In this document: positions 15,182 through 43,777 of the stretch, piece after piece | Layout: each line of letters starts with the position of its first letter | Position numbering within the stretch: position 1 is the first letter of the stretch | Assembly (NCBI GenBank): GCA_016209325.1 | Contig: JACQWJ010000034.1 | Coordinates: 220 to 64,219 of the forward strand | Direction: 5' to 3' | Origin: Candidatus Uhrbacteria bacterium | GTDB lineage: Bacteria > Patescibacteriota > Patescibacteriia > UBA9934 > GWF2-40-263 | DNA: 64,000 bases | Notes under the pieces: generated by a model | Seen by the model: the letters and a program-made list of their open reading frames with translations, nothing else | Database searches by the model: none | Told to the model about the DNA's origin: nothing | Made by a program: the position numbers and the translations under genes

Positions 15182-16180
15182 TTAAAGTGCACGATCACCT
15201 TCCAAAATTTGTTGGCTGAGTTCGTACGTATCGCCGTGACGCAGAAGACCGAGGTAAGAAGCGAGCGTTTCCGGCTTGGCGGATCCCTTCAGATTTTTTA
15301 ACATCTTTCGTTTAGTCGAGGTGCGAAGAACACGATAATGGGGAAAGTGGACCCACCCCAAAAAATCGATTCCAGAGGCAATAGAACGAAGCTCAATCTT
15401 TCGAGGATGAAGTGATAAACGCAGTCGTTGAAACAGAAACGCGTCTATTTCCTCAAGGATATTTTCGAGATATTCCCGATGCTCTGAAAACAAAACGAAA
15501 TCATCGGCATAGCGGATGTAAAGCTTCACCCGTAAGCGATGTTTTACAAACTGATCGAACGCATTCAGGTAGACATTGGCCAACATCTGCGAAGTCAGGT
15601 TCCCAAGCGGAAGCCCGATACCCTCGATCCCCGAAGAGAAACTTTGGAGAATCGTTTCGAGGAGACGGACGATCCGTTTGTCCGCGATGTATCCATCAAG
15701 CATGGTCAGCAAAACGCGCTGGTCAATGGAAGCGAAGAACTTCCGAATATCGCATGTGAGGACCCAGACGGTCTTGCGATGATTTTGCGAAACCTTGCGC
15801 GCAAAGACGTTAAACCGATCAAGCGCCTTGTGCGTTCCCTTCCCCATCCGACAGGAAAACGAATCGGCGATAAACGTCCGATCAAAAAACGGATATAATC
15901 TGCGGTACAAGGCGCGATGAAGGACCCGGTCTGCCACGGAGGCTTTGTGGATGTGCCTCGTCTTCGGATCGGAGATGATGAATGCTTGATACGGAGCGTG
16001 ACGATACGTCATGTCCGTAAGGCGCGTATGGAGAGAAAACAAATTTTCCATGAGCGACCGTTCAAACGCTTGCACGTCATCCCGTGACCGTTTTCCCTTT
16101 ACAAACTCCTGCCAAGCCTCAAGCAGATTCTCCATAGAAATAACATCCTCGTACGTATGCTGGAAGAGACTCCGGGACAT
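15182..16180 (-). CDS. reverse transcriptase of a diversity-generating retroelement (DGR)
   Basis: RT motifs incl. YADDFVLF (motif 5) and DGR-specific GLPLGNLTSQMLANVYLNAFD (motif 4 with SQ); ~330 aa with no maturase/endonuclease domain; adjacent TR/VR pair. Confidence 0.8.
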   Translation of the reverse strand: MSRSLFQHTYEDVISMENLLEAWQEFVKGKRSRDDVQAFERSLMENLFSLHTRLTDMTYRHAPYQAFIISDPKTRHIHKASVADRVLHRALYRRLYPFFDRTFIADSFSCRMGKGTHKALDRFNVFARKVSQNHRKTVWVLTCDIRKFFASIDQRVLLTMLDGYIADKRIVRLLETILQSFSSGIEGIGLPLGNLTSQMLANVYLNAFDQFVKHRLRVKLYIRYADDFVLFSEHREYLENILEEIDAFLFQRLRLSLHPRKIELRSIASGIDFLGWVHFPHYRVLRTSTKRKMLKNLKGSAKPETLASYLGLLRHGDTYELSQQILEGDRAL

Positions 16181-16215: not shown

Positions 16216-16584
16216 TTGCCAGTCTTGCAAAAGTTGAAAACCGCCTACCTCCTCTGGTTTGGGTATTGCGCCACCATCCCTAAAACGCATCGGTACACGC
16301 TCGGAAACCGCATTGACCAGTTGTTCATCGAAACCATCGAAGCCGTCAGCACGGCCGGCTTTTTGAGCCGTCAAGACAAACTCCCGTACGTACGGCTCGG
16401 CATACGAAAATTGGATACGGCGAAAATTCTCCTCCTTGTGCTGTGGGAATCAAAATCTCTGGACAACAAAAAATACATCGCCCTTTCCCGGGATGTCGAT
16501 GAAGTCGGAAGGATGCTCGGAGGATGGCATGGACAACTCACAAAACAAAACCCCGCCTCTTCCAAAGAAGGGGCGGGGAAATGA
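16216..16584 (+). CDS. avd: Avd-like accessory variability determinant (four-helix-bundle / 23S rRNA IVS family)
   Basis: 122 aa; C-terminal ILLLVLWESKSLDNKKYIALSRDVDEVGRMLGGW matches Avd/IVS family pattern (...IGKMLGGW); lies between RT and TR. Confidence 0.55.
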   Translation: MPVLQKLKTAYLLWFGYCATIPKTHRYTLGNRIDQLFIETIEAVSTAGFLSRQDKLPYVRLGIRKLDTAKILLLVLWESKSLDNKKYIALSRDVDEVGRMLGGWHGQLTKQNPASSKEGAGK

Positions 16585-16592
16585 AGAGACTG

Positions 16593-16710
16593 GCGAGGAT
16601 CGCGGACGGGTTGTTGGAGTTCCACCTGTTGTCGAGATAGTTGTAGTTCACGTACCACCGACCGTCGTTCCAGTACAGGTAGCGGACGTACAGGTTCCCG
16701 TTGGAGTCGC
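16593..16710 (-). repeat. DGR template repeat (TR)
   Basis: 118-bp block matching VR 17083-17200 at all but 15 positions; every mismatch is a T on the plus strand, i.e. an A in the minus-strand TR. Translated TR is rich in AAY (Asn/Tyr) codons. Confidence 0.8.
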
Positions 16711-17075: not shown

Positions 17076-17333
17076 CTAACTCGCGAGGATCGCGGACGGG
17101 ACGCTGGAGCTCCACCTGCTGACGAGATAGTAGCAGTCCACGCACCACCGACCGTCGCTCCAGTACAGGCAGCGGACGTACAGGTTCCCGCTGGAGCCGC
17201 TGAAGCCAACGGCCCAGAAAAAGATGTAGCGGGTGTTGCCCGCGGCATCCTTCTTCCAGACATCCGGGATGAGATGGACATTCTCCATCAAGGCATCCAG
17301 AATGTTGGGATGGAGGGCATCCAGTCCCTCCAT
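17076..17333 (-). CDS. DGR target (variable) protein, C-terminal portion carrying VR; frame stays open upstream to 17474 at the IS junction, so gene is likely 5'-truncated by the IS
   Basis: C-terminus ...GNLYVRCLYWSDGRWCVDCYYLVSRWSSSVPSAILAS encoded by VR; the in-frame upstream stop at 17475-17477 lies 3 nt from the putative IS end (~17481). Confidence 0.6.
   Translation of the reverse strand: MEGLDALHPNILDALMENVHLIPDVWKKDAAGNTRYIFFWAVGFSGSSGNLYVRCLYWSDGRWCVDCYYLVSRWSSSVPSAILAS
17083..17200 (-). repeat. DGR variable repeat (VR) at 3' end of target gene, with GC-rich IMH-like 3' segment
   Basis: Paired with TR, differing only at TR-adenine positions. Shared 3' segment CCCGTCCGCGATCCTCGC (minus sense), then divergence (IMH versus IMH*-like). 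Confidence 0.8.
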
Positions 17334-17522
17334 CCGACCACGGAGGTCATGGCCGAGGATGGAACCGGTCCCCTTCTGGGCCTCGTCGAGGTGCAGGAGA
17401 ACTTCCCGCCCGTTGACGAAGAGCTTGTCGCCCCGCCGTTGAACCCGGACCCAGCCCTTCTTGACGGGCGAGGTCTATAATGGACCCCAAAATTTAGACA
17501 CGCATTTCCCCTCGCATCCCCT

Positions 17523-17819
17523 ATGAGCGAAACCGTCCCCAAGGGACATCCACCCGTCCTCAAAGCGAAGATCGTCCTTGATGCTCTCCGAGAACAAAAG
17601 ACGATGGCTGAGCTCTCAAGCCTCTACGGCGTGCACACGCTGAAGATCAAAAACTGGAAGAGACAAGCCCTGCTTGCCATCCAGGACGGCTTTACGGAGA
17701 AGACCAAGCAAACCAAAAAAGAACAGGAGGAACTCACGTCCTCCCTCTACCAGGAGATCGGCCGACTCAAAATCGAGATCGACTGGCTTAAAAAAAAGAT
17801 GGGACTCCTTGAGTCGTGA
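17523..17819 (+). CDS. IS3-family transposase OrfA (HTH DNA-binding)
   Basis: 98 aa, KAKIVLDALREQKTMAELSSLYGVH HTH, leucine-zipper-like tail; ends at slippery A7G. Confidence 0.8.
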   Translation: MSETVPKGHPPVLKAKIVLDALREQKTMAELSSLYGVHTLKIKNWKRQALLAIQDGFTEKTKQTKKEQEELTSSLYQEIGRLKIEIDWLKKKMGLLES

Positions 17820-18669
17820 GCAGGGCCTCACCGTCCGGGATCGGGTGGCACTCCTTGAGCGAGACCATCCGGATCTGCCCCTCTCTCGCCAAACCGAGCT
17901 TCTCGGCGTCTCTCGCGCCTCCGCCTACTACCGTCCGGCGGGACCCTCGAAGTGCGATCTCGCCCTCATGGAGGAGATCGACCAACTGTACACTGAGCGC
18001 CCATACTACGGCTCCCGACGTCTGGCTCGAGAGATTTCCAAACGTCGGAAGGAGAACGTGAATCGCAAGTGTATTCAGCGCCTCATGGGTCAGATGGGAC
18101 TCGAAGCCATCTATCCCAAGCCGAACTTAAGCCGAAATACGGCCAAACATCCGATTTACCCCTATCTCCTGCGAGGCGTGAAGATCGAACGACCCAATCA
18201 GGTCTGGAGCACAGACATCACCTACATCCGCCTCTCCCATGGCTTCGTCTACCTCGTGGCCGTGATCGACTGGTACTCCCGCCTGGTTCTCGCCTGGCGG
18301 GTCTCAACCACGATGGAAGCCGGCTTCTGTATCGAGGCAGCAGAGGAAGCAATTGCGATGTACGGCGTACCGGAGATCTTCAACAGCGACCAGGGCGTTC
18401 AGTTCACAAGCGCCGACTACATTGCCATCTGGGAGACGCGCGGTGTCCGCCTCAGTATGGATGGGCGCGGTCGGGCCCTCGACAACATCTTCGTCGAGCG
18501 ACTGTGGCGAACCGTCAAATACGAGGAGGTCTACCTGAAGCACTACGAGACCGTGGAGGAAGCGAGGACGGGCCTCTCCGCCTACTTCCGCTTCTACAAC
18601 CACGAACGCCTCCACCAGAGTCTCCACTACCTCACACCTCACGAGGTCCACTTCCCAAGAGAAGGTTAA
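17816..18669 (+). CDS. IS3-family transposase OrfB (DDE integrase core), expressed via -1 frameshift from OrfA
   Basis: VWSTDITYIRL...VIDWYSRLVLAWRV...FNSDQGVQFTS...ERLWRTVKYEEVY, typical rve DDE motifs; ORF-track 17674-18669 includes the -1-frame overlap with orfA. Confidence 0.8.
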
Positions 18670-18749
18670 ACCAAAAAAAATCGGGCCTACCCGCCTGTCC
18701 TGGAACTTGCCACCAAGAACGGACTGGTACGCCTGATTTCCCCAACCAC

Positions 18750-19031
18750 TTATCCACTGACTGTCTTGACGATGGGGTCCACCTTAGTCGGCCAAGCCAC
18801 CTCAGCTCCCTCGAAGGGCAGTTTCACCTGCGCGTCGAGGTTGACCTCGATGGTGTTGTTGTCGATCAAGTGCCAACGGACTTCCGTTGACCAGGGGTTT
18901 TCTCTGCGGAGAAACTTCTTGAACGCCACGAACCACTCCAGTCCGTTGGCGCCAGCAAGCTTCTCGTAGAAATCCTTCATCGGTCCAGCCAGGGCGGCCA
19001 GACCATCAGCGCCGAGCACGTCTTTCGACAT
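18750..19031 (-). CDS. hypothetical protein; possibly the N-terminal fragment of the IS-split DGR target gene
   Basis: 93-aa ORF ending right at the putative right IS end, same strand as target gene; no motif recognised. Confidence 0.35.
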   Translation of the reverse strand: MSKDVLGADGLAALAGPMKDFYEKLAGANGLEWFVAFKKFLRRENPWSTEVRWHLIDNNTIEVNLDAQVKLPFEGAEVAWPTKVDPIVKTVSG

Positions 19032-19346
19032 GGTCAGTCTCCTTCTCTATTTGGTTTCATTCTTGTCCACGAATCTGCGGACGAAAACTACTCCCCGTGT
19101 TGAAAACCGCATCCTGGCTTACTTTAGCCAAAAAATAAGCAAGACGCGATTTTCAACTAGCTCAAGAGAACTGTTAAATTGTACCACATTTTGTCATAAA
19201 TGTCAAACATAATATATTGTTAGTCCCCAAATCGACTGGAAGTCAACGGAATCATGGCATGACTGAAGTCCGCATGAAGACATAAAAACGAAACATTGAC
19301 GGACAAGTAAGGATACGGTCATAATAGTTAATAACATTTCATATCT

Positions 19347-43700: not shown

Positions 43701-43777
43701 GGGCCCATGGGAGTAATTGGCAACTCCATTCGCTTTGACAACGGAAGTTGCGGGTTCAAGTCCCGCTGGGTCCACCA
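43701..43777 (+). tRNA. tRNA (77 nt, CCA encoded), anticodon uncertain; G3:U70 and A73
   Basis: Acceptor GGGCCCA/TGGGTCC, D-arm GGAG-TAATTGGCAA-CTCC, T-arm GCGGG-TTCAAGT-CCCGC, ACCA; anticodon arm TTCGC-TTTGACA-ACGGA with 31:39 C-A mismatch, loop UUGACA as in tRNA at 6774-6849. Confidence 0.65.

Follow-up and report, generated by a model that had tools for sequence, protein, structure and literature searches.

The window, a 64,000-nt (64-kb) stretch of Candidatus Uhrbacteria DNA, carries a DGR composed of the following parts:

15182..16180, minus strand: DGR reverse transcriptase (RT), 332 aa, intact (RVT_1, E = 4.5e-23), about 400 nt from the TR
16216..16584, plus strand: avd accessory gene, between the TR and the RT and inverted with respect to the target, TR and RT
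16589..16710, minus strand: template region (TR), from the TR/VR comparison
17079..17200, minus strand: variable region (VR), 122 nt, from the TR/VR comparison
17082..17094, minus strand: hairpin CGCGA-TCC-TCGCG at the VR 3' end, its stem complete in the VR only

The VR departs from the TR by substitutions at 14 of the 30 TR adenines, and by one difference at a position other than adenine, near the 3' end. At this sole non-adenine difference the TR has C and the VR has G, and the G completes the 5-bp stem of the hairpin, which is imperfect in its TR counterpart (16592-16604, minus strand). The stem may be what identifies the VR as the recipient. The Avd product matched the bAvd model at 39.0 bits (cutoff 40, E = 1.2e-9) and DivGenRetAVD at 56.8 bits (cutoff 80, E = 2.2e-15), with full-length coverage in both cases. 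Systems with which this DGR can be compared include those of the Patescibacteria/CPR as well as the Bordetella phage BPP-1 and Treponema TvpA paradigms, and it belongs to a known CPR-type lineage. A related locus encoding a target homolog of 229 aa (P0010) has an IS-free cassette in the order target-VR, TR, inverted avd, RT and zeta toxin, and thus shows what the locus would have looked like prior to insertion. The inverted avd is also seen in the IS-free relative L091 (5154-5666, minus strand), and is thus conserved in this lineage of DGRs.

The surrounding parts of the window are chromosomal and include SecD, type IV pilus genes and a histidine kinase. Between about 14200 and 20800 the GC content is 41-53% versus 59-62% in the flanks (48.9% for the RT, against a window mean of 58.7%), and this low-GC stretch, which covers a zeta-toxin gene, the RT, avd and TR, and then RHH antitoxin and Bro-N genes, has the appearance of an acquired island. 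The zeta-toxin gene adjoins the RT in L091 too. Elsewhere in the window two tRNA genes, at 6774-6849 (minus strand) and 43701-43777 (plus strand), are 76-77 nt long and about 75% identical over aligned columns. ARAGORN called both tRNA-Ser(TGA), and both are without the long variable arm expected of a tRNA-Ser; their anticodon loops read TTGACA, and with a one-base shift of the loop each could be a tRNA-Val(GAC).

Just upstream of the VR lies an insertion sequence (IS), whose features are:

17473..17475, no strand: target-site duplication GTC, left copy (relatives make 3-bp duplications)
17476..18786, plus strand: IS3-family insertion sequence, ends by homology to multi-copy relatives
17476..17500, plus strand: left inverted repeat TATAATGGACCCCAAAATTTAGACA, holding an inward-facing TATAAT at 17476-17481
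17523..17819, plus strand: orfA, 98 aa, HTH DNA-binding part of the transposase (HTH_Tnp_1 match)
17790..17798, plus strand: A8G slippery run at the orfA/orfB overlap, read from the sequence
17809..18669, plus strand: orfB, DDE (rve) catalytic part, its frame open from 17674 and +1 relative to orfA
18762..18786, plus strand: right inverted repeat TGTCTTGACGATGGGGTCCACCTTA, holding an outward-facing TTGACG at 18766-18771
18787..18789, no strand: target-site duplication GTC, right copy (relatives make 3-bp duplications)

That an IS3-family element with orfA and orfB sits next to the VR had been proposed in the initial annotation, and is confirmed here by domain and family-model matches; orfB contains the Pfam domains rve, rve_3 and HTH_21, and scored 276.3 bits against the NCBIfam IS3 family model NF033516 (cutoff 160). 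Its extent was less straightforward. The most obvious inverted repeat lies at 17481-17500 and 18762-18781, and the obvious cores are TGGACCCC and GGGGTCCA. When these TG...CA cores (17481-18781) were taken as the ends there was no duplication, and every simple join of the flanks was either out of frame or retained a TAG. We therefore gathered relatives of OrfB to set the ends, and the core placement was dropped once these had been compared. The relatives were drawn from one genome per species (GTDB representative genomes), none of them from the source genome; the best are 60% identical in OrfB and are spread over many phyla, among them Alphaproteobacteria, Acidobacteriota, Chloroflexota and others.

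To define the ends we compared copies within the same genome, in 11 multi-copy sets of these relatives. In every set the shared sequence runs 5 bases past the TGGxCCCC core, and each copy is flanked by a 3-bp duplication. Ends seen among the relatives include TGAGG/TGGACCCC...GGGGTCCA/CCTCA, TATAAT/TGACCCC...GGGGTCAA/CTATA in the Caldilineaceae and TGTAA/TGGACCCC in the Bryobacterales. Transferred to the window, this comparison puts the true ends 5 bases further out than the core on each side, giving a plus-strand element of 1311 bp with TA...TA termini, a terminal dinucleotide also found in the Caldilineaceae relative. Its terminal sequences are TATAATGG.../...CCACCTTA (left end TATAATGGACCCC, right end GGGGTCCACCTTA), the left and right inverted repeats match at 17 of 25 positions, and the GTC duplication is perfect and directly outside both ends. 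This placement rests on relatives no more than 60% identical in OrfB together with the GTC duplication, a 3-bp match that has a chance of 1/64 at fixed positions. The element had at first been placed at about 17481-19031, and the relatives' ends and the duplication replace these limits by 17476-18786. Comparison with other copies, suggested at the outset as the way to fix the termini, turned up none from the source genome, but the relatives supplied both the termini and the 3-bp duplication. There was no second copy within the 64-kb window, which holds only this one; none was found in viral contigs; exact look-ups of OrfA and OrfB matched only this locus; and the GTDB representative genomes contained no copy, only relatives at most 60% identical. 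The element is a previously unnamed member of the IS3 family, present in single copy in the window.

On either side of the IS are two pieces of a single gene, with a promoter-like site further upstream:

17076..17475, minus strand: 3' part of the split DGR target gene (codons 82-213 and the stop), holding the VR; first in-frame start ATG at 17333 (M129)
18787..19031, minus strand: 5' fragment of the DGR target gene, codons 1-82, reading on into the IS as a 93-aa ORF (18750-19031)
19178..19206, minus strand: promoter-like site TTGACA-17-TACAAT, 11 of 12 matches and an extended TG, upstream of the target start; a consensus match only

Deletion of the IS and one GTC yields a minus-strand ORF of 642 nt and 213 aa without a stop, so that the insertion falls at codons 81-82 of a 213-codon DGR target gene and lies antisense to it. 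Joining the flanks in silico had been put forward as a check, and it is the exact removal of the IS with one GTC that produces this single ORF, whereas raw joins at the cores failed. The predicted empty site reads ...CTTGACGGGCGAG-GTC-GGCCAAGCCACC..., with the junction ...GGCGAG GTC GGCCAAG.... A homology search with the joined sequence returned 35 homologs, the best of which range from 209 to 229 aa in length and align over 93-100% of the query. Global pairwise alignments, end to end, gave the restored protein 53% identity with P0001 (212 aa) and 51% with P0003 (213 aa), both of them intact homologs from other Patescibacteria; a single 1-residue gap falls beside the junction, and T82 pairs with T82 of P0003. 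Conserved motifs flank the IS on both sides, IEVNLDA..LPF.GA on the 5' side and GWVRVER on the 3' side. No homolog of the joined protein above 57% identity was returned, and since the same search omitted the window's own 93-aa and 70/85-aa fragments, though both are in the collection, its recall is imperfect and its negatives are weak evidence. Coordinates of target homologs in related loci are 5001-5642 in L088, 960-1589 in L090 and 5001-5690 in L089.

These alignments bear directly on the possibility that the IS landed in an intergenic spacer, in which case 18750-19031 and the VR ORF would be unrelated genes and the target would natively start near 17470. Searches against Pfam and NCBIfam could not link the two fragments, neither of which matched a family, and this is as such reading would have it. 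However, intact homologs of 209-229 aa span both pieces in continuous alignment, exact removal of the IS with one duplication restores the frame, the remnant has no in-frame start before M129, and the TAG upstream of it is made by the IS end. Homologs with a native start near 17470 were looked for, and the opposite was found. An intergenic insertion is accordingly so improbable that we give it virtually no weight, and the earlier proposal that the IS sits inside the target gene is borne out by the restored 213-aa ORF and its continuous alignment with intact homologs.

As a stand-in for the restored protein we modelled P0001, the closest intact homolog, with AlphaFold from a 31-sequence alignment (pLDDT 89.6, pTM 0.76). 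The model comprises an N-terminal helical hairpin, a six-strand beta region (residues 53-108) and a helix/strand C-terminal part that contains the VR. On this model the point of insertion corresponds to residue 81, where the strand formed by residues 77-81 ends, in a block with pLDDT of 94-96. Foldseek searches against the PDB and BFVD gave nothing significant. Compared with the C-type-lectin (CLec) fold of DGR variable proteins, the VR-bearing domain showed neither a clear match nor a clear mismatch. Because the break falls inside the confidently folded, beta-rich part of what is modelled as a single compact protein, neither fragment should be functional.

The fate of the two pieces can be predicted from their new surroundings. 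The 93-aa ORF comprises 82 native N-terminal residues followed by 11 residues encoded by the IS, from the right inverted repeat. It is on the minus strand, the same strand as the VR ORF, as had been described; it does not end exactly at the IS end, its stop at 18750 being 37 nt inside the element, and it is indeed a displaced 5' part of the target, but at 38% of the protein it is not a half. A GGAG lies upstream of the ATG at 19031, and the 5' piece, still behind its own promoter-like site and ribosome-binding site, should give a 93-aa chimeric stub. The VR frame is open from 17076 to a stop at 17475-17477, in agreement with the initial annotation, and that stop is a TAG. Rather than lying 3 nt from the IS end, as had been thought, it straddles the boundary, its TA belonging to the IS terminus and its G to the target-site duplication. 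The 3' piece with the VR is separated from its promoter and start codon and begins behind a TAG made by the IS.

The ends of IS3-family elements are known to carry promoter halves, and in IS911-type elements a promoter forms at the abutted ends in the circular intermediate. It had been suggested that the IS might provide an outward promoter for the VR remnant, such that a truncated VR-bearing protein would still be made and the DGR would still be diversifying a working product. The promoter halves of such ends speak for this, as does the VR frame, which is still open. Against it, a consensus scan of the minus strand found no promoter-like site in or near the left IS end that faces the VR remnant; the sole outward -35 (TTGACG), in the right repeat, points antisense into the 5' fragment; and translation from the first start would give only residues 129-213, so that six beta strands and two helices present in the model would be missing. 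We consider continued production of a working VR-bearing product to be highly improbable. The reading that we prefer is that the IS silenced the target, and its promoter halves may instead serve the element itself. TTGACG lies 15 nt from the right IS end and TATAAT begins the left end, and a 3-nt spacer between abutted ends would give TTGACG-18-TATAAT. By analogy with IS911-type elements, the IS most likely moves by copy-out/paste-in via a circle, whose junction would form this promoter from the right-end -35 and the left-end -10.

With respect to transposase expression, the element had been credited with an A7G frameshift site. The run is in fact A8G, and the frame of orfB with respect to orfA is +1 rather than -1. 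Computed translation shows that an mRNA with A7 would encode a 381-aa OrfAB fusion and one with A10 a fusion of 382 aa. Relatives whose run is A8G or A9 (Bryobacterales, Chloroflexia, Caldilineaceae) likewise have orfB in +1 and occur in multiple copies at >99% identity, from which it follows that this arrangement is functional. Relatives with A7G or T6G have the classical -1 arrangement. Relatives L047-L055, L033/L035/L079, L064-L075, L051/L053 and L008-L010 have OrfB identities of roughly 50-60%, differ in their recoding set-ups and are all multi-copy. An apparent in-frame stop between orfA and orfB of relative L008 proved to be a homopolymer length difference among copies. Judged by these sequences, recoding style has switched within the clade of IS relatives.

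Classical IS3-family elements (IS911, IS3, IS150) rely on -1 ribosomal frameshifting at A6G, and their ends are TG...CA. The element described here resembles them in its HTH OrfA and DDE OrfB, its length of about 1.3 kb, its 3-bp duplication, and a right-end -35 and left-end -10 that could be joined as a circle-junction promoter. It differs from them in its +1 frame, its A8G run and its TA...TA ends, and its close relatives show both styles. A closer likeness is to the IS1447 (IS120) subgroup of C. thermocellum, in which an A9 run, the need for a +1 frame, TA termini and 3-4-bp repeats have been described and transcriptional slippage has been shown (PMC6211511). Features in common are overlapping transposase frames with orfB in +1, an overlap that contains a long A run (A9 in IS1447, A8G in this element), termini of 5'-TA in place of 5'-TG, inverted repeats that match imperfectly and direct repeats of 3-4 bp (PMC6211511). 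The hosts differ, Clostridium thermocellum being a Firmicute and the host here a CPR bacterium, and the likeness described here is one of features. By comparison with IS1447, the OrfAB transposase would most likely be made by transcriptional slippage on the A8 run. That A8-A9/+1 relatives are multi-copy in several phyla suggests that expression in the manner of IS1447 extends beyond Firmicutes.

Misjoins at repeats are frequent in metagenome assemblies, and the arrangement could in principle be an artefact in which an IS contig was spliced into the gene by mistake. Logan contigs of the four runs SRR12113385, SRR12113390, SRR12113401 and SRR12113422 nevertheless match the window at 100% identity over one or both junctions and the VR, and differ from it only by adapter remnants at contig ends. 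Identical junctions in independent assemblies of four runs, together with a perfect 3-bp duplication and exact restoration of the frame, both of which are signatures of real transposition, make an artefact exceedingly improbable. As to the age of the insertion, the perfect duplication, the intact transposase frames and the lack of a secondary stop or frameshift in the 642 nt suggest a recent event. Conversely, no IS-free allele was recovered, so the insertion could be old and fixed rather than recent. The exact restored protein was absent from a collection of 15 billion proteins, the searchable collections barely covering this organism. JGI metagenome contigs likewise gave 0 matches for the empty-site 24-mer and for a 23-mer of left flank plus target-site duplication, and as the organism is absent from that collection these counts are uninformative on IS-free alleles.

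Taken together, we hold with high confidence that the IS transposed into the DGR target gene of this Candidatus Uhrbacteria genome, duplicating GTC and splitting the gene into non-working pieces, with the core of the DGR left intact. The event itself, the knock-out of a gene by a new member of the IS3 family, is of an ordinary kind. An intact and expressible VR-bearing target gene, such as defines a complete DGR, is lacking at this locus, as the gene is split at codons 81-82. The view that a DGR with an interrupted target would be inactive was right as regards the protein product, which is destroyed, but not as regards the retrohoming machinery of RT, Avd and TR, which looks undamaged, as do the cis elements of the VR. 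With the RT, Avd, TR and VR 3' hairpin all intact, the DGR can probably still write adenine-directed changes into the VR, which means that it would now be writing into a pseudogene.

Whether this amounts to an orphaned DGR depends on the rest of the genome, where one or more further targets could make the loss only a partial decay. P0003 and P0008 are full-length target homologs located among housekeeping genes with no RT within 4-5 kb, so remote or stand-alone copies of the target family do exist in related genomes, which lends this possibility some substance. P0006, another target homolog, is on a contig with a terminase-like gene, and the family possibly occurs on phages as well. On the other hand, a scan with the TR that allowed any change at adenines found this VR and no second one in the whole 64-kb window, the window being the extent of that scan. 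We regard additional targets as unlikely, if clearly less so than the other alternatives considered above, and prefer the reading that the DGR has lost its target.

For annotation, these results mean that three 'hypothetical proteins' of the Candidatus Uhrbacteria MAG are really two halves of one pseudogene (HY734_03100 and HY734_03115, the two target fragments) and an IS, and surveys of DGRs should count this one as target-less. What the locus provides is a base-pair record, from a CPR bacterium with a small genome, of how a mobile element inactivated the only local target that a hypermutation system had. Although speculative and in our estimation rather doubtful, it is appealing to think that this population is a natural test of DGR homing on a silenced target, and that the IS extends IS1447-type recoding from Firmicutes to CPR and other phyla. 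If homing continues without selection, the read diversity of the VR would be high at TR-adenine positions and would include otherwise disfavoured codons. The locus lends itself to a modest natural experiment on DGR activity in the absence of selection.
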